From the NCBI GenBank assembly GCA_964372345.1, contig CAYJQR010000001.1:36825-100824 (forward strand): a stretch of DNA of 64,000 nt, in the 5' to 3' direction. This stretch comes from an uncultured Planctomycetia bacterium. Its GTDB lineage: Bacteria; Omnitrophota; Gorgyraeia; JACOVV01. The position numbers and the translations under genes were made by a program. This document shows, in pieces, positions 5,351-39,774 of this stretch. How positions within the stretch are numbered: position 1 is the first letter of the stretch; each line of letters starts with the position of its first letter. The notes beneath the pieces were generated by a model. It saw only the letters and a program-made list of their open reading frames with translations. It was not told the origin of the DNA and did no database searches.

Positions 5351-6945
5351 GAAAAACGGAAAATGGAAAATGGAAAGTGGAAAGTGGGAAAGACAAAAAT
5401 CCATTTTCCGGGTTTTATGTCTTGTTGATTGTTTTTGCTTTATCCATTTTCCATTCTCTATTTTCCATTTTCCCTGTTTACGCCGAGGCCAGCAAAAGTT
5501 CCAAGTTCACTCTCGATGCCGGAGGATTTGTTTCTGGAGGGGGCAGCGCTGAAAGCCCGACAATCAAATCTCAAGCCGGAAACCTGGGAGATTTCGCGGG
5601 AACAACCACCACCGCGACTTCCTCTGGAACTTCCTCATCGGGCGCGGCTTCCGCCGTGACTACGGTGAATCCGGGGCTTCTCCAGGTCATCGTGGGAGAA
5701 GGCGCTCATAGTGATTATCCTTTTGATATCAAGGAAATCATTGCTAAGGATTCTCCCATGGGAAGCGCCATCACTGCCGCCGACTGGCAGAAGGATAATG
5801 ATCCCTATTTCTACTGGACGGTTTATGGTCCGCCGGAAGGAGTCATCGGTTACAGTTTTGCTCTGAACGCGATTCCCGATGAAACAGTGGATGTGAGCGA
5901 TTCCAGTTTTTCCTATGCCGGGAAGAATATCTCCGACGGCAAGCATCTTTTCCGTGTCATTGCCCAGAGCGCCGCCGGCAAATGGGGAAGAGAAGGGGCT
6001 TTTGAAATCTGGATTGACGCGACGGCTCCATCGGTGGTTTCCTTTAATCCCGGGAACAAGGCCCTGCTGAATACGGCGACACCCCAGATCCAAGTCGCTT
6101 TAAAAGATGCTGACAGCGGCGTCAACCCGGATTCCGTTGTTTTAAAGGTGAATCGCGCCACGGTTGAGGTCCCTTTTGACGACCAACAGGGGGGCGTTAC
6201 TTACACGCCTGCTTCTCCGCTAAAAGAGGGGATTAATTCGATCACGTTCGACGCGCGGGATAAAACAAATAACGTCGCGGCGACTCTAGTCTGGAGCTTC
6301 ACCATTGATACCCAAGCGCCCGGCGGAAGCGTCGTCATCAATAACGGCGACGCGTCCACCACTTCTACCTCAGTCAAATTGACGCTCGCTGCGGAAGACG
6401 CGACGACTTCGGTTAAAGAGATGATGATCAGTAATCAACCTGATTTCGGCGGGGCGCGCTGGGAACCTTTCGTTGGTTTGAAAGATTCGTGGACACTCTC
6501 TCCGGTCAGCGGGGAACGGGCTGTCTATGTTAAATTTAAAGATGAAGCGGGCAATGAATCCGGCGCCTACAGCGACCCCATCGAATTGGTGATCATCGCT
6601 CCGGACACAACCATCACCAGCGGCCCTTCCGGGGTCACCGATCAGACAGCGGCGGCTTTCACTTATTCCGCTTCTGAGTCCGGCAGTTCTTTCAGGCGTC
6701 AAATTGACGGGGGGGATTGGTCGGAGTGGGGGACTGAAACCTGGGTGACGTTCACCGATCTTAAAAGGGGAAATCACTATTTCGGCGTCAAGGCCGGTAA
6801 AGATGTGGATGGCAATGGCACGATTGACGCCGACGAGGAAGATCCGACCCCCGCGACGCGAAGCTGGACGATCAGTGAAAGCGGCGGAACAGAAGCGATT
6901 AACTTACCACCGGAAAAGCCAGTGAAATATTGGTACAAAGAATAG
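5347..6945 (+). CDS. Secreted protein with Ig-like/Big-like beta-sandwich repeats. Possible pilus-associated adhesin or T2SS substrate.
   Basis: The N-terminal signal peptide is largely encoded by heptamer element A3 (hydrophobic core FYVLLIVFALSIFHSLFSIFPVYAEA). The sequence is Thr/Ser-rich with repeated modules reminiscent of bacterial Ig-like domains. The ATGA start overlaps the upstream gene. Confidence 0.5.
   Translation: MRKTENGKWKVESGKDKNPFSGFYVLLIVFALSIFHSLFSIFPVYAEASKSSKFTLDAGGFVSGGGSAESPTIKSQAGNLGDFAGTTTTATSSGTSSSGAASAVTTVNPGLLQVIVGEGAHSDYPFDIKEIIAKDSPMGSAITAADWQKDNDPYFYWTVYGPPEGVIGYSFALNAIPDETVDVSDSSFSYAGKNISDGKHLFRVIAQSAAGKWGREGAFEIWIDATAPSVVSFNPGNKALLNTATPQIQVALKDADSGVNPDSVVLKVNRATVEVPFDDQQGGVTYTPASPLKEGINSITFDARDKTNNVAATLVWSFTIDTQAPGGSVVINNGDASTTSTSVKLTLAAEDATTSVKEMMISNQPDFGGARWEPFVGLKDSWTLSPVSGERAVYVKFKDEAGNESGAYSDPIELVIIAPDTTITSGPSGVTDQTAAAFTYSASESGSSFRRQIDGGDWSEWGTETWVTFTDLKRGNHYFGVKAGKDVDGNGTIDADEEDPTPATRSWTISESGGTEAINLPPEKPVKYWYKE
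5358..5473. repeat. Heptamer inverted-repeat miniature element, copy A3. It is longer than A1/A2 and has exact terminal inverted repeats GGAAAATGG ... CCATTTTCC.
   Basis: Sequence runs ggaaaatggaaaatggaaagtggaaagtgggaaagacaaaaatccattttccggg ... ccattttccattctctattttccattttcc. The interior has a nested palindrome (aagacaaaa / ttttatgtctt). Confidence 0.8.
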
Positions 6946-6980: not shown

Positions 6981-7013
6981 CTGTACCCTGAACCCTGTAC
7001 CCTGTACCCTGAG
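6981..7013. repeat. (CCCTGTA/CCCTGAA) heptanucleotide tandem repeat, intergenic.
   Basis: Sequence is ctgtaccctgaaccctgtaccctgtaccctgag. A related copy cccctgtcccctgtaccctgaaac sits at 31974-31997. Confidence 0.85.
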
Positions 7014-9418: not shown

Positions 9419-9987
9419 GTAAACTCAAAATCGTTTTCTGGATATTGGCGGTTCTTTTTACGGCTTTTTTTATTCATCGCGCTCTCTTTACCTCCGGGGC
9501 CAGGAACGGGAAGATGCTGGATCCGGCCAAGAAAAATGTTCAGGCGCTCCTGGACAAGGCAGAGGAGAGGCTTCCTAAAGAAGTGTCGGTGCGTCTGGAT
9601 CCGTTAACAGTTCCAATTTTAGAGGACTCCTATAAAGGGCTCAAAGGAAGGAATTTGTTTGCTCAGTATCAAGTTTCTAAAAAGACCGCAGCCCCTTCAA
9701 AATCTGACAAGAAAGGGGATGAGGCAGCGAAGTCAAAGAAGAAAGAAGAACCCCCGCCGGCCGTCTTCTTTTATAAAGGGACGATTCATCTGGGAGGAAA
9801 ACAGGTGGTGATCCTGCAGGAAGAAGGGGGACGCTCTTTCTTTGTCGGGAAAGGGGATCATCTGGTGTTAAAGGGGGGGGAATCAGAGTACGAAGTCATT
9901 GACATTACAGCAGATGAGGTGATAATATTAAATTCGAAATTACCTCAGGAAGAGAAAGTTTCAGTCTCAAAAATAAAGTCCAAATGA
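9415..9987 (+). CDS. PilP-like protein.
   Basis: It has a transmembrane/signal anchor and a Lys-rich linker. The C-terminal beta domain GTIHLGGKQVVILQEEGGRSFFVGKGDHLV...YEVIDITADEVIILN matches the PilP-fold pattern. Confidence 0.5.
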   Translation: MSKLKIVFWILAVLFTAFFIHRALFTSGARNGKMLDPAKKNVQALLDKAEERLPKEVSVRLDPLTVPILEDSYKGLKGRNLFAQYQVSKKTAAPSKSDKKGDEAAKSKKKEEPPPAVFFYKGTIHLGGKQVVILQEEGGRSFFVGKGDHLVLKGGESEYEVIDITADEVIILNSKLPQEEKVSVSKIKSK

Positions 9988-11570
9988 AGAAAATGCTACT
10001 TACTTTTATCCTAGGGTGTTTATTCATGGGGGCGCAGGGTGATTGGCCCCTCATGGCCATTGACACAAAGACCCCTGCTAGCCAGAGCTTAACCGTTGAG
10101 GACCTGCGTCAACTGGAAGCGCGAGTGAAGGCGCTGGAGCAGGAGTTTGCCGGGGAAAGAGCAAAAGAGAAAAAGAGTTGGTTTGGTCAGTATCAGGAAA
10201 GACGAAAAGAAGAAAGGGCTCGTCAAGTAGAGAAGAAACGAATTCTTAAGGAGGAACGCGAAAGCTCAAAACAGCGGGCGGATCGTCTCTACGAAGAAGC
10301 CAAACAGCTGATACGAGGAAAAAGGTTTAAGGAAGCAAAGAAAGATTTGGAAGAAGTGGACCGGCTGGATCCCAATCGTCATTGGGTGAATGTTCTCTTG
10401 ATGGAGGTAGATTCGCGGATCCAGCGGGACGTCCGGAATGAGAGGGAAGAGCGGTTGCAACGACGGACTTGGCTGGTCAAACGGGAGGCCGGAACAGAAG
10501 AGCCAGAACCAGCAAAGCAAGGACCGATTCAGAAAAAGAGGGTGGAGAAAAAAGAAGGGACGGAATGGAAGAAACAAAGAGAAATAGAAGAGAAAAGGGA
10601 GAAATCAGAAAAAGATAAAAGACTTCAGGAAATAAGGGAAGAAAAACGGCGGGCCGCGGAAGAACAGAAATCGGGAAGAAAGAGAAAACAGGAAGAAAAG
10701 CGGGTTCAGGAAGAGAAAAGGAAAGAGGAGAAGACCGCCCAACTCAAAGAGAGAGCGGAGGCAAAGGCGATCTATCAAAGGGTAGCGGCGAAACGGAAGA
10801 AGAGTGACAAGAAGCGACGGGAGGAAGAGAAAGAGCAAAAACAGGCGGAAAAGGAAAGACAGGAAGCGGAGCGAGAGGAGAGGATTCAGAAAAGCCGGGA
10901 AGAAAAGAAATTAGTTGTTCTGGCCGAAGAAGACCTGAACGCGAGAGAAAGAGAAGCGAGACAATCGCGGAGCAAAGAGGCGGTAGATCCGGAGAAAGAA
11001 CAGGGCTTGGACGAAACGGCGTCTGAACAAGAGAGATTAGCGCGCGAGCAGAAGAGATTGGGAGAAGAATTCTTGAACTGGAAGGTCGCCAAGAAAAAAC
11101 CGCAGGAAAAGCCAACCTATAGTTCATTCTTAATACAGGGTGGAGAGACTGCTCTGGAAGTGAAGCAGTATAACGCGGCGATTGCCGCCTATGAAGCCGC
11201 TTTGAAGTTGGAGCCGGAATCAAGCCAAGCGCAGCGAGGAATACGCACGGCTCAAATGGCAAAAAAAGAGGAGGCAAGAAAGGCAATCCTGGCTCAATTA
11301 GATCGCCGGCAGCGAGTTGTTTCTAAACCGATTACGATTTATTTCCATGACGCAACTTTAGCTGAAATGCTCGAACATCTTCAGAAAATAAGCGGCGCCG
11401 ATTTTGTGATTTCTGATGAAGTCAAACAAGATCAGGATCGAAGAACGATCTTCATCCAGGAAGTGCCTTTAGAGGACGCCCTCCAGCAGATTCTCGAAGG
11501 ATATAAAGAATTCGTCTATTCCGTCAAAAACCAGACCGTTTCGATCACAAAACCTGTTACCGCTCACTGA
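9984..11570 (+). CDS. Lipoprotein with a long Lys/Glu-rich coiled coil, a TPR-like segment and a C-terminal secretin-N (N0/STN)-like domain. There is no secretin beta-barrel.
   Basis: Has a lipobox (FILGC), a stretch of about 250 aa of KE repeats and the TPR-like AAIAAYEAALKLEPES. The C-terminus ITIYFHDATLAEMLEHLQKISGADFVISDEVKQ...LEDALQQIL fits the secretin/TonB N-terminal short-domain pattern. Confidence 0.5.
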   Translation: MKKMLLTFILGCLFMGAQGDWPLMAIDTKTPASQSLTVEDLRQLEARVKALEQEFAGERAKEKKSWFGQYQERRKEERARQVEKKRILKEERESSKQRADRLYEEAKQLIRGKRFKEAKKDLEEVDRLDPNRHWVNVLLMEVDSRIQRDVRNEREERLQRRTWLVKREAGTEEPEPAKQGPIQKKRVEKKEGTEWKKQREIEEKREKSEKDKRLQEIREEKRRAAEEQKSGRKRKQEEKRVQEEKRKEEKTAQLKERAEAKAIYQRVAAKRKKSDKKRREEEKEQKQAEKERQEAEREERIQKSREEKKLVVLAEEDLNAREREARQSRSKEAVDPEKEQGLDETASEQERLAREQKRLGEEFLNWKVAKKKPQEKPTYSSFLIQGGETALEVKQYNAAIAAYEAALKLEPESSQAQRGIRTAQMAKKEEARKAILAQLDRRQRVVSKPITIYFHDATLAEMLEHLQKISGADFVISDEVKQDQDRRTIFIQEVPLEDALQQILEGYKEFVYSVKNQTVSITKPVTAH

Positions 11571-12664: not shown

Positions 12665-15370
12665 ATGCTGAGCTGGATTCTTAAAAAAATTGTCGGTACC
12701 CAGAATGAAAGAGAATTGCGCCGGTTGATCCCCGCGGCGCAAAAGATCAACGCTTTAGAACAGGAGATTCAGAAGTTATCCGATGAAGAACTCCGGAATA
12801 AAACCGAAGAATTTAAAGAACGGTTGGTTAAGAAAGTGGGCCCTGAGAAACTCTATCTCAGGCGAAAGCACTCGCCGGTGTTGGTGGAAAAAGGAGACGC
12901 GGAGTATGAAGAATACCATGCGGCGCGCGAGGCGATTCATAGCGCTTTAAACGAACTCTTGCCGGAAGCGTTCGCGGTGGTGCGGGAGGCGGGGCGGCGC
13001 GTGCTCAAAATGCGCCATTTTGACGTCCAGTTGATCGGCGGCATTGTTCTTCACCAAGGAAAAATCGCGGAGATGGCCACCGGCGAGGGAAAAACGCTCG
13101 TGGCGACCCTGACGGTTTATCTGAACGCGCTCACCGGAAAAGGGGTGCATGTCATCACGGTCAACGATTATCTGGCGCGGCGAGACCGCGCCTGGATGGG
13201 GCCGTTGTATGAATTTCTGGGACTGACGATCGGCGTGATCCAGCATGATATGGATCCCGAGGAACGCAAAAAAGCGTACGCCTGCGATATCACCTACGGG
13301 ACGAACAACGAGTACGGTTTTGATTATCTGCGCGACAACATGGTCATTCGCAAAGAGGACAGGGTCCAGCAAAGGGGACTGCACTACGCCATCGTTGATG
13401 AAGTGGACAGCATCCTGATTGACGAGGCGAGAACGCCGCTCATCATTTCCGGGCCGGCGGAGGAATCCACGGAGAAATATTACGTGATTAACCGGATCAT
13501 CCCGCGGCTTGAGAAAGAAAAAGATTATCAGATTGACGAGAAAGCCAATACGGTCAATCTCACCGAAACAGGAATTCATCAAGTGGAAGAGATGCTGGCG
13601 GTCAAGAATCTTTATGAAGACGTGAATATGGATCTAGTTCATCATGTGAATCAGGCGCTCAAAGCGCATACTCTTTTCCAGAAGGATGTGGACTACGTGG
13701 TGAAAGACGGAGAGGTGCTTATCGTTGATGAGTTTACCGGCCGTTTAATGCCGGGGCGGCGGTACTCCGACGGCCTTCATCAGGCGCTTGAAGCGAAAGA
13801 AGGGGTCGCCATTGAACGGGAAAACCAGACGCTGGCGTCCATTACTTTCCAAAACTATTTCCGCATGTACGATAAACTGGGTGGAATGACAGGGACGGCG
13901 GCGACGGAAGCCCAAGAATTTCACGCGATTTACAAATTGGATGTGGTTGTGGTTCCGGCGAATAAACCGATGAAACGGACTAATCATCCGGACGTCATTT
14001 ACCGGACCGAGCGGGAGAAATTCAACGCCGTCATCGCTGAAATCGCCCAGCTTTACAAAGAAGGGCGGCCGGTGCTGGTCGGAACCATTTCCATTGACAA
14101 GTCCGAGAAACTGAGCGCCCTATTGACACGGAAAGGAATCCCGCACCACGTCCTCAACGCGAAATACCACGAGAAAGAAGCCGAGATCATCGCGCGGGCC
14201 GGGCAGAAATTCTCCGTTACGATCTCTACCAACATGGCGGGCCGGGGAACCGACATCATTCTGGGGGAAGGAATCGCCGGCCTTGGAGGATTGCATGTTT
14301 TAGGGACGGAGCGCCATGAAGCGCGGCGGATTGATAACCAGCTTCGAGGAAGATCAGGGCGTCAAGGAGATCCCGGATCGAGCCGGTTTTATCTTTCGTT
14401 AGAGGATGATCTGATGCGGATTTTTGGCGGTGACCGGATTTCTGGAATGATGTCAAAACTAGGAATGGAAGAGGGGCAGGACATTCAGCATCCTTTAGTC
14501 ACCCGTTCCATCGAAACCGCGCAAAAACGGGTAGAGTCGAGAAACTTTGAAATACGAAAACATCTTTTGGAATACGATAACGTAATGAATAAGCAGAGAG
14601 AAGTGATTTACCAGGAAAGAAATGAAGTGATCGAAGGAGAAGATCTACGCTCACACGTTCTTGAAATGATCGAAGAGGCGATCCGGAATACTTTCGGCCG
14701 TTATGTGAACCCGCAGGTGGCGCCGGATCAGTGGGATCTGGCCGGGTTAACCGAGTGGGCGAGAAGAGGGCTGGGACTGCGGTGGGAAACGGCGAAAGAG
14801 TCGGGTTTAGAGGCGAGGCAAATCGAAGCGTCATTACTGGAGGGGGCTTTAAAATCGTATCAGGAAAAAGAGGAACAGCTGACCGCGGAACTGATGCGCC
14901 AGTTAGAGAGAAGCGTTTTATTGCAGATCATTGATTCCAAATGGAAAGACCATCTCTACGCGATGGACAATCTTCGGGAGGGGATCGGACTCAGGGCTTA
15001 TGGTCAGCGGGATCCGCTGGTGGAGTATCAGCATGAGGCGTATATCATGTTCACCGACATGGTGGAGTCGGTCAAACAGGAATCGGTGGAGATGCTGATG
15101 AAAGTCCAGTTGATGCGACGGGAACCCAAGCCGGCGCGCGGCATATTGGAGACGATTCCTCAGAAACTGGTTCATGAGACCCCCTCCGCTCTGGCGGGAA
15201 ATCCGTTGAAATCGGTGGAAGAGGCGATACCGGGGAGCGGGGCCCCATCGGCGAAATCAATGCTCGGCGGCCCGCAGCCGGTCCACCGCCAGACTCCCAA
15301 GGTGGGGCGCAATGATCCCTGCCCCTGCGGGAGCGGGAAGAAGTACAAGAAATGCTGCGGGGCTGTTTGA
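12665..15370 (+). CDS. secA: Preprotein translocase ATPase SecA.
   Basis: The full-length 901 aa product has DEAD-motor motifs ([33 protein letters not shown]) and the C-terminal zinc-binding tail [14 protein letters not shown]. Confidence 0.95.
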
Positions 15371-15372
15371 AA

Positions 15373-16935
15373 ATGAATGTATTATCGGCGCTACTACTTG
15401 TTCTTAGTTATCCCCCCTTTAATTTCTGGTGGCTGGCGTGGCTTGGATTGATTCCGTTATTCACTTCACTCACCAAAACAAAGGATAGTAAACAATCATT
15501 TCTTCGGGGGTATCTCTTTGGTTTTCTTTTTTGGCTGGGAACTATTGGGTGGGTGGGCTACGTCACTATTTTCGGCGCCTTGATGCTGATCCTTTATTTA
15601 TCTCTTTATTCAGGTATCTTTGGATGGATTTTTTGGCGATTATGGAAGAAAAAAATTAGAGATTTTCGATTCATTCTGCTCATTTCTGGCGCGTGGACAA
15701 TCCTGGAATGGATTCGTTCTCATCTCTTCACTGGTTTTGGTTGGAATCTCTTGGCGTATTCCCAGGCGCCGAATCTACCGGTGATCCAAATCGCGGATCT
15801 CGTCGGGGCGTTTGGGGTGTCGTTTTTGGTGGTGTGGGTGAATGGGGCATTATTTTTGGCTAGGAGCTGGGAGCTAGGAGCTGGGAGCAAAGGCAAAATC
15901 AAAAGTTTTTTCTCCCAGCTCTTAGCTCCTAGCTCTCAGTTGACTTTTCTTCTGGTTATTCTCGTTTGTTCCTACGGTTTCTATCGTCTCAACGAAAAGA
16001 TACCCACAATTCCCGTCTCGATTGCTGTGATCCAAGGAAACGTCCCGCAAGACATCAAATGGGAAGATCAGTATCGTGAAGCGCTATTTCAACGGTATGA
16101 ACTCTTGACAAAAACGGCGACCTTGGATCATCCGCAGTTAGTCATCTGGCCGGAAACTTCCATCGTGGAAGATTTCAGCAATCCTGAGATTCAGAACCGA
16201 ATCGCCGGCATCGCCAGAGAGGCAAACAGTTTTCTCTTGGTCGGCGCTCCCTGGTCGAGTCAAACATCGGAAAATGGAAAATGCCCGCCGGAGGCGGGTC
16301 TGCCTCTTCAGCCGAAGGCTGATCAGCCTCAGGCTGAGGCAGAGAAAATAGAAAATAAAGAAGACATCGGCGGGCACTATTTCAACAGCGCTATTTTATT
16401 TGATCCTGAGGGGAACCTCGTTCAGAAATATGACAAACTCCATTTGGTTCCCTATGGTGAGTTTATTCCTTTTGAGAAACAATTCCCGTTTCAACGGAAC
16501 TGGATCGTCACCGGAGATTTTACTAGTGGGAAAGAACACACGGTCTTTACTACTCCCAGCTCCCTTCGACTTCGCTCAGGGCAGGCCCAGCTCCCTTCGA
16601 CTTCGCTCAGGGCAGGCCCAGCTCCTAGCCAGGTGGGTTTTTCCGTCTTGATCTGTTTCGAAGACCTCTTTCCTGATTTAGTTCGTCAATTTGTCAAGAA
16701 AGGGGCGCGGCTTCTGATCAATATTTCCAACGACGCGTGGTTTGGTGAAAGCGGCGCGGCGTTTCAGCACGCGCAGGCGTCTGTTTTTCGCGCGGTAGAG
16801 AACCGGGTCCCGGTGGTGCGGGCGACGAATACCGGTTTCAGTTGTTTCATTGATTCCCGCGGCCGTATTTATGAAAAGGCGCCGCCGTTTAAGACAGGAT
16901 ATCTCACAGCAAAGGTGGAAATCCCGAGCACTTGA
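15373..16935 (+). CDS. lnt: Apolipoprotein N-acyltransferase, carrying three in-frame repeat-element insertions.
   Basis: It has an N-terminal polytopic membrane domain plus a CN-hydrolase domain with a Glu (VIWPETS), Lys (YDKLHLVPYGEFIP) and Cys (ICFEDLFP) triad. The start was moved to ATG 15373 (MNVLSALL), which overlaps the secA stop. Confidence 0.85.
   Translation: MNVLSALLLVLSYPPFNFWWLAWLGLIPLFTSLTKTKDSKQSFLRGYLFGFLFWLGTIGWVGYVTIFGALMLILYLSLYSGIFGWIFWRLWKKKIRDFRFILLISGAWTILEWIRSHLFTGFGWNLLAYSQAPNLPVIQIADLVGAFGVSFLVVWVNGALFLARSWELGAGSKGKIKSFFSQLLAPSSQLTFLLVILVCSYGFYRLNEKIPTIPVSIAVIQGNVPQDIKWEDQYREALFQRYELLTKTATLDHPQLVIWPETSIVEDFSNPEIQNRIAGIAREANSFLLVGAPWSSQTSENGKCPPEAGLPLQPKADQPQAEAEKIENKEDIGGHYFNSAILFDPEGNLVQKYDKLHLVPYGEFIPFEKQFPFQRNWIVTGDFTSGKEHTVFTTPSSLRLRSGQAQLPSTSLRAGPAPSQVGFSVLICFEDLFPDLVRQFVKKGARLLINISNDAWFGESGAAFQHAQASVFRAVENRVPVVRATNTGFSCFIDSRGRIYEKAPPFKTGYLTAKVEIPST
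15859..15939. repeat. SWELGA-type palindromic element, copy B1, inserted in frame in lnt.
   Basis: Sequence is gctaggagctgggagctaggagctgggagc, a 24-nt interior, then ctcccagctcttagctcctagctctcag. It encodes ARSWELGAGSKGKIKSFFSQLLAPSSQL. A second copy sits in metG at 38848-38932. Confidence 0.8.
16269..16357. repeat. Composite miniature element in lnt: (GGAAAAT)2, a GC hairpin cccgccggaggcggg, a GGCTGATCAGCC-type palindrome, then (GAAAATA)2.
   Basis: Heptamers bracket two hairpins. It encodes ENGKCPPEAGLPLQPKADQPQAEAEKIENKE in frame. A sister copy sits in metG at 38472-38540. Confidence 0.8.
16555..16625. repeat. 31-bp direct tandem repeat (2.3 copies) inside lnt.
   Basis: The unit cccagctcccttcgacttcgctcagggcagg is repeated. 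It encodes SSLRLRSGQAQLPSTSLRAGPAPS in frame. Confidence 0.85.
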
Positions 16936-16974: not shown

Positions 16975-17286
16975 ATGGAAGAGCTCTCCCAGTGTGTTGG
17001 TTTTGAGTGGGATAAGGGAAATAGCCAGAAGAACTGGCTAAAGCATCATGTCAGTCCGATGGAGTGTGAAGAATTATTTCTAAATCGGCCGCTGGTGCTT
17101 GCCGAGGATGTAAAACATTCCCATCAAGAAAAACGTTATTACGCTTTAGGGCAGACGGATATGAAGCGGTTTCTTTATATTGTATTTGTTCTCCGAAACC
17201 GATATGTCCGAGTGATCTCTGCCAGAGACATGAGTCGAAACGAAAGAGAGGCATATCTCAATGACGAAAAGAAAACAAATCCCTAA
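16975..17286 (+). CDS. brnT: BrnT-family toxin (DUF497 ribonuclease toxin).
   Basis: The 103 aa product has the N-terminal WDxxKxxxNxxKHxV signature (FEWDKGNSQKNWLKHHVS) and R/ISAR-like C-terminal residues (VISARDMSRNE). Confidence 0.8.
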   Translation: MEELSQCVGFEWDKGNSQKNWLKHHVSPMECEELFLNRPLVLAEDVKHSHQEKRYYALGQTDMKRFLYIVFVLRNRYVRVISARDMSRNEREAYLNDEKKTNP

Positions 17287-17542
17287 TTTTCGATCCGAAG
17301 ATGAGGAACGGCGATTCTGGGATTCCCATGATTCGACTGGTTACATTAATTGGAAAAAAGCTAAGCGAATAACGTTCCCGAACTTAAAACCATCAACCCG
17401 GACAATTTCTCTGCGGCTGCCGGAATCCATGCTGGAAGAATTGAGACTCTTGGCGAATAAGCAGGATGTCCCCTATCAGTCGCTCATGAAAGTATTCCTA
17501 GCGGAAAAGATAGGAGAAAAATTAGGAACTTACAAAGCATGA
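17261..17542 (+). CDS. brnA: BrnA-family antitoxin (CopG/RHH-like).
   Basis: The 93 aa product overlaps the brnT 3' end. Its C-terminal ribbon-helix-helix segment (SLRLPESMLEELRLLANKQDVPYQSLMKVFLAE) is typical of BrnA. Confidence 0.75.
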   Translation: MTKRKQIPNFRSEDEERRFWDSHDSTGYINWKKAKRITFPNLKPSTRTISLRLPESMLEELRLLANKQDVPYQSLMKVFLAEKIGEKLGTYKA

Positions 17543-20940: not shown

Positions 20941-21649
<709 letters not shown>

Positions 21650-31143: not shown

Positions 31144-31187
31144 TTGATGATCCCACCACCTGTTTTCGACTCTTTGAGCCGATGATC

Positions 31188-31248
31188 CGCCTCAGCCAAA
31201 GGCTGATCAGCCTCTTCAGCCAAAGGCTGATCAGCCTCTGGCTGAGGC
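31188..31248. repeat. GGCTGATCAGCC-type palindromic/tandem element, copy C2, intergenic.
   Basis: Sequence is gcctcagccaaaggctgatcagcctcttcagccaaaggctgatcagcctctggctgaggc. The unit is duplicated inside terminal inverted repeats. It is related to the element inside lnt at 16290-16345. Confidence 0.8.
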
Positions 31249-31272
31249 ATGATGCTACGGGGAGGATTCATT

Positions 31273-31995
31273 ATGGTTCAAGCGATTGTTCCAGCGGCCG
31301 GAAAAGGAGAGCGGCTCGGAGCTAATGTCGAAAAGCCGTATGTTTTACTGGCGGGGATACCGCTGATTGTCCACACGCTGAAGGGGCTGGAGTCGGTCAA
31401 GGAGATTGATTCGATTGTTCTCGTCGTCAGCCGTGAGTGGCTCCGGAGAGTCCGCGAAGAAATCCTGGAGCGTTATCGTCTGAAACGAATCGCGGCGGTG
31501 GTTGAGGGAGGAGCTACCCGCATGGAATCGGTCTACGCGGGGTTGTCTTCTTTGAATCAAAAAACTCGATGGGCGCTTGTCCATGACGCGGCAAGGCCGT
31601 TGGTCAGGAAGGATGAAGTTTCAAAACTCATCCAGTCGGCGTGGCGAACCGGGGCGGTTTGTCCCGGCGTCACGCCTAAGGATACGACAAAGAGAGTGAG
31701 TGAAAAGGGCTGGGTTAAAGAAACCTTGGATCGGCGCCGGCTCCGCGCCGTTCTGACTCCGCAGGTGTTCCGCAGAGATATTCTGGTGAAGGCGTATGAA
31801 CTGGCGTTTGCCAAAGGATACAGCGGCACGGATGACGCCTCATTAGTCGAGCGGATGGGGGTTAAGGTTAAGGTTGTTGAAGGAGATCTGGAAAATATTA
31901 AAATTACCACGCCGGAAGATTTATTGCTGGCGGAAGCAATTTTAAAGCGGAGAGATAAGGGCAGGGTTCAGCGTCCCCTGTCCCCTGTACCCTGA
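31273..31995 (+). CDS. ispD: 2-C-methyl-D-erythritol 4-phosphate cytidylyltransferase.
   Basis: AIVPAAGKGERLG is the IspD signature. About 240 aa. Confidence 0.9.
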   Translation: MVQAIVPAAGKGERLGANVEKPYVLLAGIPLIVHTLKGLESVKEIDSIVLVVSREWLRRVREEILERYRLKRIAAVVEGGATRMESVYAGLSSLNQKTRWALVHDAARPLVRKDEVSKLIQSAWRTGAVCPGVTPKDTTKRVSEKGWVKETLDRRRLRAVLTPQVFRRDILVKAYELAFAKGYSGTDDASLVERMGVKVKVVEGDLENIKITTPEDLLLAEAILKRRDKGRVQRPLSPVP

Positions 31996-32001
31996 AACGC
32001 G

Positions 32002-37082: not shown

Positions 37083-38059
37083 GCCAACAAACGGCGGTTT
37101 GGCTTTTTAAGAGAGCTCTCCGGGAGGAAAAGCTAGCCCACGCTTATCTTTTGACCGGGCCCGACGGCGTCGGTAAGAGAACTCTCGCTCAAGAGGCTGC
37201 GAAGGGACTGAACTGCCGGCTGGTTCATACCCAACTCGAGACTCGAGACTCGAGACTCGAGACTGAAGAAAATTGGCCCTGCGATTCCTGTCGCGAGTGC
37301 CGGCTGATCGAATCGGGACAGTACGCGGACGTCACTTTATTGACTCCTGAAAATAAAACTCTTAAGATCGAAGCCATTCGCCGCCTCCAACAGGCGGTGG
37401 CGCTGAAACCGTACGAAAGCCGTTTCCGTGTCGCGATTATTCAGGATGTGGACCAATTAACCCCCGACGCCGCCAACGCTTTCCTAAAAACGCTGGAAGA
37501 ACCGCCGCAGGGCGTTTTCTTTTTTCTAACGACCCAATACCGGGAGAGAGTTTTCGCGACGATTCAATCCCGTTGCCAGGTTGTCTCTCTGAAAGCCATT
37601 TCTAAAGAGATATTGGAGCGGAAGATGATCCCTCGTTCGGTGATTTCCTTGGCCCAGGGAAGTTTCGGCAGGGCAGACTATTGGATGGATCCCGAAGTGG
37701 GAGAGAGAAGAAAAAAAATCTTATCGGCGTTTTTCTTAAACCATTCTCTCGACGATATCAACGAAAAGGTATCCAGCAAAGAGGAGGAACGCCTGCTGAT
37801 GGAGGAAAAACTCCTTCTTCTGCAGAGCGGGCTTCGGGATTTAATCGTCTGGAAGAAAACAAAAGACGAGGCATTGCTCATTCATCGGGATTACCGGGAG
37901 CAAATCAGTCATTTTGCCTCCCGATTTGAGATGGACACTCTAGAAGATAAAATTATTTCTTTGGAACAGTTGACTCAAGGATTAGACCGCAGCGCTAACC
38001 TAAAACTAACCCGGGCGGTTCTGGAACTTGAGCTGGCGGACCTGACAAAGGCAGAATGA
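37061..38059 (+). CDS. holB: DNA polymerase III delta-prime subunit, with an in-frame heptamer tract.
   Basis: HAYLLTGPDGVGKRTLA, a Zn module (CDSCRECRL) and an SRC motif. 332 aa. It follows tmk as in Bacillus. Confidence 0.85.
   Translation: MSFSNILGQQTAVWLFKRALREEKLAHAYLLTGPDGVGKRTLAQEAAKGLNCRLVHTQLETRDSRLETEENWPCDSCRECRLIESGQYADVTLLTPENKTLKIEAIRRLQQAVALKPYESRFRVAIIQDVDQLTPDAANAFLKTLEEPPQGVFFFLTTQYRERVFATIQSRCQVVSLKAISKEILERKMIPRSVISLAQGSFGRADYWMDPEVGERRKKILSAFFLNHSLDDINEKVSSKEEERLLMEEKLLLLQSGLRDLIVWKKTKDEALLIHRDYREQISHFASRFEMDTLEDKIISLEQLTQGLDRSANLKLTRAVLELELADLTKAE
37235..37266. repeat. (CTCGAGA)4 heptanucleotide tandem repeat inside holB.
   Basis: Sequence is ctcgagactcgagactcgagactcgagactga. 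It encodes LETRDSRLETE in frame. Confidence 0.9.
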
Positions 38060-39774
38060 ATCGATACTACGTTACCACTCCTCTTTATTACGTCAACGAC
38101 AAACCCCATATCGGCCACGCCTATACCGAGATTGCGGCGGACACAATCGCTCGTTACCGTCGGTTCAGAGGGGATGAAGTTTTCTTTTTGACCGGGACCG
38201 ATGAGCATGGACAAAAAATCGAGCAGGCGGCTAAAAAAGCGGGGATGCCGGCGAAGGATTTCGCGGATCAGGTGGCTCCGCGTTTTTCGGAAGTATGGAA
38301 ACTTCTGGGGATCAGCTACGATTATTTTTTAAGGACGACGGAGCCAAGACATATTCAAACAGTGCAGAAGGTATTATCGCTCCTTTTTGAAAAAGGAGAT
38401 ATCTACATTTCTGAATACGAAGGATGGTATTGTACTCCCTGCGAGACGTTCTGGACGGAGACGCAGCTTGAAGAACAGAAAATGGAAAATGGAAAATGCC
38501 CACCGGAGGCGGGTTCGCCTCTGGCGAAGAAAATGGAAACGCCTGTTTGCATTGACTGCAAAAGACCGATTGAAAAAATCACGGAGAGTAATTACTTCTT
38601 TCGGTTATCGAAATATCAAGAGTGGCTGATGGACTACATCAATAGCCACCCTAAGTTTATCCAACCGGCAACGCGGCGGGAAGAAATCTTGAGTTTTTTG
38701 AAACAGCCGTTGAATGATCTCTGCATCTCACGTCCCAAACAGAGACTTGCATGGGGAATTCCGATTCCGTTCAGTCAAGATCATGTCACGTATGTGTGGT
38801 TTGACGCATTGATTAATTATATTAGTGGAATCGATTATCTTGAATGGGCTAAGAGCTGGGAGCTAGGAGCTAGGAGTGAAAACTCGGATTCTACCTCGCC
38901 AGCTTCCAGCTTCCAACTTCTAGCTTCTAGCCGTTTTTCAAAATTCTGGCCGGCCGATATGCACTTAATCGGCAAAGACATCCTTCGCCCTCACGCCGTC
39001 TACTGGCCCATCATGCTGCGCGCTCTCGGAATAGAACCCCCTAAACAGGTTTTTGCTCACGGCTGGTGGACGATGCAAGAGGAAAAAATGTCGAAATCCA
39101 AAGGAAATATCGTTGATCCGGTGGACGTCTGCGCCCGCTATGGCGTGGACGTTTTTCGTTATTTCCTTCTAAGAGAGGTGACCTTTGGGCTGGATGGCGC
39201 TTACTCGGAGGGGGCGTTGACTTTGAGGTTTAACAGTGATTTAGCCAACGATCTTGGTAATTTGTTTCATCGAACCCTGACGATGGTGGAGAAATACTAT
39301 GGGGGGAAAGTACCCCAGGTAGAACAGAAGGACGAGGGACGAAGGACGAGGGACGAAAGGAAATATATCCCAGAAGACTTAATCGTTCTTCTTCGATCTC
39401 TTCCGGATCGTTTGGATCAAGCGATGGAGGATCTTGATTTCGCGCGCGCTCTTTCCGCCATCTGGGAGTGCGTCAACCGGGCCAATAAATTGATTGAAGA
39501 AGTGAAACCGTGGGTTTTAGACAGGGAAAACGACCGGGAAGGGTTAAATCAAGTCATCTATTTTTTGGTGGATCTATTACGGATCATTACTCTGGCGGTG
39601 GCCCCCTTCATGCCGCGCGCGGCGGAAAAGATGTGGAAACAATTGAACCTTCCCTCGAAGTTAGAAGCGATGGGTTTTGAGGATTTGGCTCCTGGAAAAA
39701 CCGTCGGCGGTTTCCATGTGAACAAGGAAGAACCGCTCTTTCCCCGATTAGACACTAAGAAAGGAGACCGTTAA
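38056..39774 (+). CDS. metG: Methionine--tRNA ligase, carrying three in-frame repeat insertions.
   Basis: Has HIGH (PHIGHAY), KMSKS and Zn-knuckle cysteines (CTPCE...CIDCKRP). The product is 572 aa. Confidence 0.9.
   Translation: MNRYYVTTPLYYVNDKPHIGHAYTEIAADTIARYRRFRGDEVFFLTGTDEHGQKIEQAAKKAGMPAKDFADQVAPRFSEVWKLLGISYDYFLRTTEPRHIQTVQKVLSLLFEKGDIYISEYEGWYCTPCETFWTETQLEEQKMENGKCPPEAGSPLAKKMETPVCIDCKRPIEKITESNYFFRLSKYQEWLMDYINSHPKFIQPATRREEILSFLKQPLNDLCISRPKQRLAWGIPIPFSQDHVTYVWFDALINYISGIDYLEWAKSWELGARSENSDSTSPASSFQLLASSRFSKFWPADMHLIGKDILRPHAVYWPIMLRALGIEPPKQVFAHGWWTMQEEKMSKSKGNIVDPVDVCARYGVDVFRYFLLREVTFGLDGAYSEGALTLRFNSDLANDLGNLFHRTLTMVEKYYGGKVPQVEQKDEGRRTRDERKYIPEDLIVLLRSLPDRLDQAMEDLDFARALSAIWECVNRANKLIEEVKPWVLDRENDREGLNQVIYFLVDLLRIITLAVAPFMPRAAEKMWKQLNLPSKLEAMGFEDLAPGKTVGGFHVNKEEPLFPRLDTKKGDR
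38472..38540. repeat. Composite miniature element in metG: AGAACAG, (AAAATGG)3, hairpin cccaccggaggcggg, hairpin ttcgcctctggcgaa, then GAAAATGGAAAC.
   Basis: It encodes ENGKCPPEAGSPLAKKME, inserted between the two CxxC pairs of the MetRS zinc knuckle. It is a sister of the lnt copy at 16269-16357. Confidence 0.8.
38848..38932. repeat. SWELGA-type palindromic element, copy B2, inserted in frame in metG.
   Basis: Sequence is gctaagagctgggagctaggagctaggag ... ccagcttccagcttccaacttctagcttctagcc. It encodes AKSWELGARSENSDSTSPASSFQLLASS. Confidence 0.8.
39321..39360. repeat. (GAAGGAC/GAGGGAC) heptamer tandem repeat with an AGAACAGAA left terminus, inside metG.
   Basis: Sequence is agaacagaaggacgagggacgaaggacgagggacgaaagg. 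It encodes KDEGRRTRDERK in frame. Confidence 0.85.

Follow-up and report, generated by a model that had tools for sequence, protein, structure and literature searches.

The lnt gene of an uncultured Omnitrophota bacterium, which is predicted to encode an apolipoprotein N-acyltransferase (Lnt), contains three repeat insertions that are read in frame. The gene was analysed within a stretch of 64,000 nucleotides (assembly GCA_964372345.1, contig CAYJQR010000001.1, positions 36,825 to 100,824 of the forward strand), hereafter referred to as the window. The gene is probably functional and under purifying selection, and three permissive loops of its product have probably been colonised by short dispersed repeats that are typical of this Omnitrophota lineage. 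In a codon-aware DNA alignment of four lnt genes, each of the three insertion sites is a tandem array of heptamers, and sites 2 and 3 hold additional modules between the heptamer units.

The product of lnt comprises an N-terminal membrane domain (Pfam LNT_N, 1.3e-40) followed by a nitrilase-type domain (CN_hydrolase, 3.3e-30). Its closest solved relatives in a PDB search are the apolipoprotein N-acyltransferases of E. coli and P. aeruginosa (approximately 1e-33); N-acylation of apolipoproteins is the predicted function, and the description of this lnt as essential is an assumption carried over from E. coli. The secA gene (12665-15370, plus strand) ends two bases 5´ of the lnt open reading frame (ORF). 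A start at the ATG further upstream (15352) would overlap with secA at its end, and the start of lnt was set at 15373 because the orthologs begin at the methionine of the MN(V/L)LS motif. An earlier note on this DNA had claimed that three repeats lie in the ORF without a frameshift or stop codon, and all three are indeed present and in frame in an ORF that is open over 520 codons. The catalytic triad is retained, as the same note had stated. E261 (VIWPETS), K355 (YDKLHLV) and C428 (ICFEDL) are invariant in 111 aligned Omnitrophota-type Lnts and correspond to E. coli E267, K335 and C387. W230, E363 and E430, the counterparts of the essential E. coli residues W237, E343 and E389, are also conserved. 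E. coli Tyr388 is replaced by F429, a position occupied by Phe in at least 90% of the 111 sequences. The E. coli sequence used in this residue map matches both the segments of the PDB alignments and the residue numbering in the literature. The AlphaFold2 (AF2) model, built from the 111-sequence alignment, has a mean predicted local distance difference test score (pLDDT) of 88.9 and a predicted template modelling score (pTM) of 0.89. In Foldseek, the model matches the E. coli Lnt structures with template modelling (TM) scores of 0.71–0.76, the highest of which belongs to 8aq4.

Three syntenic orthologous loci (L001, L004 and L005) were used to estimate constraint. The ratio of nonsynonymous to synonymous substitution rates (dN/dS, Nei-Gojobori) is 0.15–0.19 for lnt and 0.05–0.13 for its neighbours (secA, 0.05–0.06; prfA, 0.10–0.13; exonuclease, 0.06–0.07). 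The order prfA-secA-lnt-(brnT/brnA)-exonuclease-lysS is conserved as far as each fetched ortholog stretch reaches: L004 covers the whole set, L001 covers the set without lysS, and L005 (3 kb) covers only the end of secA, lnt and one uncharacterised downstream gene. A tblastn search detected no second lnt copy in the 64-kb window. Judged from the sequence, a pseudogene is very unlikely because the ORF and the triad are intact, the structural model is confident, dN/dS is 0.15–0.19, synteny is kept and no second copy lies in the window. A pseudogene accompanied by a second intact lnt, which the earlier note had named as fatal to its reading, is not what was found in these 64 kb. The exact Lnt protein is known from one 103-kb NCBI contig, and the nearest named homologs all belong to Candidatus Omnitrophota.

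To locate the inserts in the protein, residues were numbered against E. coli Lnt and referred to the architecture that Wiktor et al. 2017 (PMC5500888) reported. Mapping on an Lnt structure, a check that had been proposed with the original claims, places all three inserts in loops and none within the catalytic core, an alpha-beta-beta-alpha sandwich. The triad and the other known essential residues appear to be untouched. The proposal of extra surface loops holds in that the loops lie outside the core; sites 2 and 3 are not remote surface, as Arm 3 (site 3) and Arm 4 (site 2) are among the loops that ring the active-site funnel. Site 3 is part of the beta5-beta6 loop, which has 40 residues, and follows the important residues P353, F358 and M362; insert 3 ends two residues before the strand that bears the catalytic C428. 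Residues 302-331 and 403-418 of the AF2 model have a pLDDT below 50.

Sites 1, 2 and 3 span 20–88, 8–23 and 5–36 aa, respectively, in 110 homologs. Site 2 of the window Lnt is extreme, with 44 aa compared with a median of 11, and site 1 measures 38–88 aa in all four close orthologs compared with a family median of 27. Many of the long homolog loops are visibly repeat-derived (CHPEGMKCPKDL, CHPERSEGSKD and RLSVIGYRLSVKG), and the three sites appear to be permissive loops that are filled with other repeats in other Omnitrophota Lnts. The repeat-derived codons number approximately 82 (27+29+26), which agrees with the earlier estimate of about 80 added residues as a span. As a net gain the estimate is too high: the window protein is longer by 23 aa than P0002, by 42 aa than P0004 and by approximately 52 aa than the median of the 110 homologs. 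The net gain falls below the span because sites 1 and 3 are already occupied in every ortholog.

Insert 1, the SWELGA palindrome, has two arms of 28 nt each that are 89% complementary and separated by 16 nt, and each arm consists of approximately four units of GCTRGGA or its complement. The palindrome folds strongly compared with shuffled sequences, both as DNA (-25.6 kcal/mol, z -5.2) and as RNA (-58.8 kcal/mol, z -8.6). A second copy resides in metG, the gene for methionyl-tRNA synthetase (MetRS). In this copy, one base per heptamer of the right arm departs from complementarity with the left arm, which yields G-U pairs in the mRNA; its hairpin is significant as RNA (z -2.7) and not as DNA (z -0.4). 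In a protein census with a 55-aa concatenation of the two SWELGA copies, 13 candidates shared words and none reached E <= 10, which suggests that the element is low-copy or limited to this lineage. The orthologs carry other palindromes at site 1 that are unrelated in sequence, such as the GTAG-type GTAGGGGCGAATAATTATTCGCCCCTAC of L001.

Insert 2 is a nested composite. Its heptamers enclose a hairpin pair, CCCGCCGGAGGCGGG plus TCTGCCTC..GAGGCAGA, which includes the hairpin CCCGCC-GGA-GGCGGG. Within the second hairpin, the loop accommodates a double hairpin (TCAGCCGAAGGCTGA, then TCAGCCTCAGGCTGA), and the DNA fold of the whole insert has a z of -5.05 against shuffles. The junction AAAATGCCCRCCGGAGGCGGGT (22–23 nt), which spans the heptamer-hairpin boundary, occurs in lnt, in metG and in the metagenome contigs L126 and L127. 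The canonical composite, present in metG (38478-38538), L126 and L127, consists of (GGAAART)n, CCCGCCGGAGGCGGG, TCYGCCTCTGGCRGA and (GAAARTG)n. Of the two metagenome-contig copies, one is intergenic and one falls within an open frame, where its reading frame differs. Compared with this canonical form, lnt site 2 has the extra double hairpin (TCAGCCGAAGGCTGA, TCAGCCTCAGGCTGA) within the second-hairpin loop and therefore reaches three nesting levels. The double hairpin recurs in an intergenic palindrome upstream of ispD, whose DNA fold reaches -29.3 kcal/mol (z -8.6). At site 2, L001 has heptamers only (GGAAAGT GGAAAGT GGAAAGA), L004 has nothing, and L005 has neither a heptamer array nor a module but a short hairpin-like stretch of unrelated sequence.

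Insert 3 has no hairpin fold (DNA z +0.27). Its first 71 nt (16555-16625) form a 31-nt unit repeated 2.3 times with 100% identity (Tandem Repeats Finder score 142), in which heptamers alternate with two copies of the 24-nt module CCCTTCGACTTCGCTCAGGGCAGG. L004 has four heptamers at this site and no module (CCTAACT CCCAGCT CCCAGCA CCCAGCA), and the window sequence is longer by 48 nt, or 2 x 24. A related 48-nt module occupies the same position in L005, and a different hairpin, CCGCCTCTGGCGG, is found in L001. The comparison with close relatives that the earlier note had suggested reveals heptamer-only states (L004 at site 3, L001 at site 2), and no ortholog is empty at sites 1 and 3.

The three repeats had been described as distinct elements, and a reading of them as independent of one another does not stand. 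They share a heptamer scaffold, the ends of sites 1 and 3 are reverse-complementary, and the elements belong to one window-wide system. Positions 15857-15871, at the left end of site 1, are a perfect 15-nt reverse complement of 16617-16631, at the right end of site 3, and both sites therefore draw on the same heptamer family. The cores of the insert elements recur in the window compared with 0–0.5 matches expected, so chance does not explain them. With an array defined as at least three units with at most one mismatch, the window contains 15 strict arrays of period 7 and none of period 6 or of periods 8 to 14; shuffled sequences yield 0.0. Eight of the 15 lie inside Pfam-supported genes, not counting the lnt sites. 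Judged as miniature inverted-repeat transposable elements, inserts 1 and 2 show inverted symmetry, and their flanking direct repeats are indistinguishable from array units.

Several other genes of the window carry the same kind of sequence in frame (Table 1). The metG gene has three inserts of the heptamer system, all of which correspond to alignment gaps relative to the Aquifex MetRS structure 2csx. The array in the ABC-transporter ATPase gene is absent from the L004 ortholog; conversely, a C-terminal array in the L004 lysS is absent from the window. GGAAAAT arrays are free of stop codons in all six frames. The SWELGA element is open in one of its three plus-strand frames, the other two containing stops, and lnt site 2 also has a single open plus-strand frame. 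In all three cases (the two SWELGA copies and lnt site 2) the open frame is the one in use, as would be expected if selection had acted on random insertions. Positions 1034-1118 and 1486-1563 hold a pair of nearly identical 85-nt palindromes.

Table 1. Positions of lnt, its inserts and related repeat features in the 64-kb window.
Feature	Position	Strand	Description
lnt (apolipoprotein N-acyltransferase)	15373..16935	+	520 codons/520 aa, intact; triad E261/K355/C428; without helix H8
Insert 1 (site 1), SWELGA palindrome	15859..15939	+	81 nt, 27 codons, aa 163-189; (GCTRGGA)x4, 23-nt spacer, (CTCYYAG)x4; E. coli 186-196, cytoplasmic H6-H7 turn; AF2 extended helical hairpin, pLDDT 68-85
Insert 2 (site 2), heptamer/hairpin composite	16269..16357	+	89 nt, aa 300-328; GGAAAAT x2 ... 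AGAAAAT x2 around hairpin pair, three nesting levels; E. coli 306-311, beta3-beta4 loop, tip of Arm 4; AF2 pLDDT <50
Insert 3 (site 3), heptamers with 24-nt module	16555..16632	+	78 nt, aa 395-420; CCCAGCT[24-nt CCCTTCGACTTCGCTCAGGGCAGG]CCCAGCT[second copy of CCCTTCGACTTCGCTCAGGGCAGG]CCCAGCT CCTAGCC; E. coli 369-379, distal limb of Arm 3; AF2 pLDDT <50
Insert-spanning peptides			e.g. SWELGAGSK, CPPEAGLPLQPK
metG (methionyl-tRNA synthetase)	38056..39774	+	Pfam tRNA-synt_1g 3.7e-110; three in-frame inserts of the heptamer system
metG insert, heptamer-plus-hairpin composite	38478-38538		
metG insert, second SWELGA palindrome	38848-38931		
metG insert, 14-mer repeat	39327-39357		
(GAAAATG)x4.7 array in ABC-transporter ATPase gene (LolD/MacB type)	21137..21169	+	in frame, read ENGKWKMENGK
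Array in holB	37234		single, in frame
Array in AIR-synthase-like gene	56200		single, in frame
Array in ahcY	61512		single, in frame
TCAGCC-NNN-GGCTGA mini-hairpin module, intergenic copy	31185..31250	.	66-nt palindrome upstream of ispD; recurrence of the double hairpin

The 24-nt module of site 3 extends far beyond this lineage. It is part of a 26-nt repeat with an exact 22-nt core, which occurs in at least 120 reference-genome stretches (L006-L125) from more than 12 phyla, in addition to the window copies at 16562-16616. These phyla include Acidobacteriota, Patescibacteria, Verrucomicrobiota, Planctomycetota, Chloroflexota, Nitrospirota, Cyanobacteria, Gemmatimonadota, Proteobacteria, Armatimonadota, Dormibacterota and Omnitrophota. 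Across 123 instances the consensus, CCCTTCGACTTCGCTCAGGGCAGGCT(C), is 26–27 nt long and has sharp boundaries, beyond which there is no conservation. The module is mostly intergenic, with 42 of the 123 instances in long open frames compared with 434 of 615 random positions. Its flanks exceed controls in self-complementarity only modestly, with strong duplexes in 25% of cases compared with 10–12% of controls (p approximately 1e-4 to 1e-5); residence in a host hairpin applies to a subset and was rejected as a rule. A constant position beside heptamer arrays was rejected as well, as 2–3 of 119–123 instances have such a neighbour, compared with 0.3–0.7% of control positions. The arrangement does occur, with the module between heptamers in a Leptolyngbyaceae locus (L030, TTTTGGA units) and in a Pirellulales locus (L063). 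An Rfam scan of the whole window and of 18 loci with the 26-nt module returned no family apart from one tRNA. The searchable literature contains no mention of the 26-nt module or its peptides and none of Omnitrophota together with heptamers. The 26-nt repeat may merit separate study.

These features are consistent with a model in which the system is built from tandem 7-nt arrays, which often pair with inverted arrays to form palindromes. Modules of 15–48 nt, either GC-rich mini-hairpins or the 24-26-nt dispersed module, would settle between heptamers or in the loops of other modules and thereby generate nested composites. The insertions would be filtered by selection rather than aimed, and the copies that persist would be those with a multiple of 3 nt, no stop codon in the host frame and a tolerant loop. 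As 7 equals 1 modulo 3, a single heptamer would cause a +1 shift, and slippage by one or two units could restore the frame after a module is gained or duplicated. Site 3 could have arisen by the precise insertion of 24-nt modules between heptamers or by a 31-nt duplication offset by the loss of a 7-nt unit; the duplication would need such a frame fix because 31 is not a multiple of 3. In the resulting Lnt, the cytoplasmic H6-H7 helical hairpin would be longer, and Arm 4 and distal Arm 3 would each bear a disordered extension. The inserts themselves are most likely neutral or slightly costly passengers.

A far-reaching extension of this model can be offered only tentatively. Heptamer arrays might serve as landing pads and frame buffers for ultra-small (15–27 nt) mobile modules, which until now have been described only in Nostocaceae as small dispersed repeats (SDRs). 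The 22-nt core shared by more than 12 phyla would then imply a widely shared trans-acting machinery or intense horizontal spread. The housekeeping genes of Omnitrophota would have been invaded on a scale like that of the Rickettsia palindromic elements (RPEs), with new loops that include the mouth of the Lnt active site.

Two of the other explanations concern the origin and retention of the inserts. Exaptation, in which the loops have been recruited and are kept by positive or purifying selection, either to reshape the portal through Arms 3 and 4 or to offset the missing C-terminal helix H8 with the H6-H7 hairpin, appears unlikely. It would account for the placement of sites 2 and 3 around the funnel, for the enlargement of site 1 in every close ortholog and for a clade that lacks H8. 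However, the site sequences are unrelated between close orthologs that are 74–80% identical elsewhere, which is the opposite of conservation. Site 2 has no array or module in L004 and L005, AF2 predicts no structure in inserts 2 and 3, and the same elements are present in unrelated proteins and in intergenic DNA. An origin purely in situ, by local replication slippage and template switching with no movement between loci, is also improbable, even though unit numbers vary among the orthologs, the perfect 31-nt tandem duplication resembles a local event, and heptameric tandem repeats, which have been ascribed to polymerase slippage, rank first in over-representation among the long simple repeats of many bacteria (PMC4679880, PMC4692102). 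Slippage is unable to make one complex sequence independently at several places, and identical non-repetitive modules recur at loci that are unlinked and in further genomes: lnt, metG, L126 and L127 have the junction AAAATGCCCRCCGGAGGCGGGT in common, the 22-nt core spans its many phyla, and the two 85-nt palindromes are nearly identical. The modules therefore appear to have been copied between loci rather than made on the spot, given that identical composites occur in lnt, metG, other contigs and intergenic DNA.

The remaining explanations question the gene or the assembly. The repeat load could be a symptom of relaxed selection on a decaying or dispensable gene that may be non-essential here. 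Some Gram-negative bacteria, Francisella and Neisseria among them, can dispense with lnt. The dN/dS of lnt, which is two to three times that of the neighbouring genes, the missing H8 and the presence of three inserts in one gene agree with this notion. It is nevertheless highly improbable. The ORF is intact, and the counterparts of E. coli W237, E267, K335, E343, C387 and E389 are conserved. In addition, dN/dS is well below 1, synteny is kept in four genomes, the AF2 model is confident, and inserts of the same kind occur in metG and holB, which are undoubtedly essential. The loss of H8, shared by 25 of the 110 homologs, is an old clade trait. An assembly artefact, in which short repeats were mis-joined in a metagenome-assembled contig, is scarcely credible. 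The exact protein does come from one contig only, but every insert is shorter than a sequencing read and the frame is preserved in six different genes. Moreover, five contigs from independent assemblies encode an identical copy of the ortholog P0002, which has inserts of its own at these sites.

Several points weigh against colonisation of a functional lnt by neutral dispersed repeats. Inserts in Arm 3 and Arm 4 could possibly alter substrate access, and Arm 3 is functionally important in E. coli Lnt (PMC5500888). The higher dN/dS of lnt relative to its neighbours is compatible with a somewhat relaxed constraint. The translation of the inserted codons into extra loops is a prediction from the sequence. 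In other phyla the 24-nt module has no general association with heptamer arrays, and for the heptamer arrays themselves copying is inseparable from repeated slippage in situ. The repeat survey covers 64 kb of the source genome, and the source contig represents one assembly; no transposase or other trans-acting factor was identified in these 64 kb.

The closest precedent invoked for the inserts was that of the RPEs, and this parallel applies to the outcome, selfish or neutral repeats that become extra loops in housekeeping proteins, and fails for length and architecture. In both systems, short palindromic repeats reside in frame in unrelated housekeeping genes and add a fold-compatible peptide, and one gene can be hit more than once. 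In the window, such in-frame residence is seen in lnt, metG, the ABC ATPase gene, holB, ahcY and the AIR-synthase-like gene. According to PMC10969869 (citing Ogata et al. 2000, 2002), RPEs are units of approximately 100–150 bp, form defined sequence families that each encode a conserved peptide, and are confined to Rickettsia. In contrast, the window elements are 31-89-nt mosaics of 7-nt arrays and nested 15-48-nt modules in an Omnitrophota host, and one of the three lnt inserts is non-palindromic. The lnt inserts, at 81, 89 and 78 nt, are set apart from RPE units by both size and architecture.

Cyanobacteria offer a likeness in architecture. Elhai et al. 2008 (Genome Res 18:1484) reportedly described tandem heptanucleotide repeats (STRRs) and small dispersed repeats of 21–27 nt in these bacteria. 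The reported features (see also the citing papers PMC4390886 and PMC5861425) comprise abundant period-7 arrays and sharp-edged 21-27-nt modules that are dispersed, nested in other repeats and sometimes interrupt coding sequence, all of which resemble the window system. The window has head-to-tail 7-nt arrays in excess over other periods (15 vs 0). The site-3 module falls within 21–27 nt, with sharp boundaries and many contexts, and is likened to SDRs by description and not by the sequences of SDR1-8; the cyanobacterial locus L030 even holds the same 24-nt module between TTTTGGA units. SDRs are reported as restricted to Nostocaceae in PMC5861425, unlike the module, which occurs in more than 12 phyla, and the host here belongs to Omnitrophota. 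Heptamer repeats are described as mostly intergenic in PMC4692102, which differs from the eight strict arrays that lie inside genes.

Two further classes were compared. The GTAG-tagged palindromes of the repetitive extragenic palindromic (REP) and bacterial interspersed mosaic element (BIME) type are mobilised by REP-associated tyrosine transposases (RAYTs), are extragenic by definition and are species-specific (PMC3733652, PMC3116915). Like them, the present elements include GC-rich imperfect palindromes of 20–40 nt that form mosaic clusters, and a GTAG-type palindrome sits at lnt site 1 of L001. The three window inserts differ in that they are intragenic and carry neither a GTAG nor a CGTC tag, and no RAYT gene is known for this genome (64 kb). 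REP-type GTAG...CTAC palindromes occur in frame in two ortholog lnt genes, namely GTAGGGGCGAATAATTATTCGCCCCTAC in L001 (10001-11494, site 1) and GTAGGGACGGCCGGTCGGTCGCCCCTAC in L005 (737-2383, site 2), which would be unusual for elements defined as extragenic. Heptameric simple-sequence repeats (Mrazek 2007, as quoted in PMC4679880 and PMC4692102) include TAACTGA of Beggiatoaceae and GGGAATC of Xanthomonas and Nostoc. They share with the window a strong and specific period-7 excess, arrays of 2–6 units, inverted array pairs and a patchy distribution across phyla. Compared with the window, the published cases, as described there, are enriched in intergenic and depleted in coding DNA, with neither nested modules nor in-frame residence in essential genes.

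Helix H8 is the C-terminal membrane helix of E. coli Lnt. The enzyme spans the membrane with eight helices, of which H8 follows the nitrilase domain, and its C terminus is cytoplasmic (Wiktor et al. 2017, PMC5500888). The window Lnt stops at the counterpart of E. coli residue ~479 (window 16900-16935) and thus falls short of eight helices, an absence that was not part of the earlier note. In 25 of the 110 homologs, including all close orthologs, the chain likewise ends right after the nitrilase domain, and the shared loss therefore represents an old clade trait; the C terminus of such an Lnt would be periplasmic. A BrnT/BrnA-type toxin-antitoxin pair at 16975-17542 separates lnt from the exonuclease gene. 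L004 has the pair as well, L001 has none, and in L002 only a 50-aa CopG remnant is left. Truncation of lnt by this pair was considered and rejected, as the whole clade ends alike, including L001, which is without the pair.

Other features of the window were recorded in passing. An ABC transporter pair lies near lnt, with a MacB_PCD/FtsX permease annotated in L004 and the ABC ATPase confirmed in the window. The secA gene has a seven-codon insertion (AIPGSGA) at 15224-15244, in the C-terminal linker, that is absent from both orthologs. A Lys/Glu/Arg-rich low-complexity protein (window 9984-11570, L001 3958-6219) has 528 aa in the window and 753 aa in L001, and the window version is without in-frame blocks of 107, 77, 40 and 27 aa seen in L001. 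Palindromes of (GGAAAAT)n/(CCATTYT)n at 1034-1118, 1486-1563 and 5351-5478 form the 5´ ends of ORFs for pilin-like or secreted proteins. The stretches encoded by the two arms, the charged ENGKWKM and the hydrophobic FSILHSPFS, together are leader-peptide-like. The GGAAAAT unit contains ATG, and an array of at least three units thus provides a start codon in every frame. Related arrays of (GTMCCCT)n/(CTGTACC)n, at 31973-31998 (3´ end of ispD) and 6981-7011 (just upstream of pilM), look like a third heptamer family.

To our knowledge, repeats that colonise essential genes in frame are textbook-rare, and the known case is essentially that of Rickettsia. The present system is an RPE-like outcome that stems from a different, heptamer- and SDR-like element system in a new phylum, and another case, with a different mechanism and in a candidate phylum that is free-living or epibiotic, would demonstrate the generality of this outcome. 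Heptamer slippage, with 7 being 1 modulo 3, would, if true, explain the persistence of non-triplet repeats in genes. Such elements inflate gene lengths and create spurious peptide similarities in the annotation of metagenome-assembled genomes. Lnt is an antibiotic target, and the recurrent sites constitute a natural insertion-tolerance map of the loops of Lnt and MetRS that accept 10–40 extra residues.

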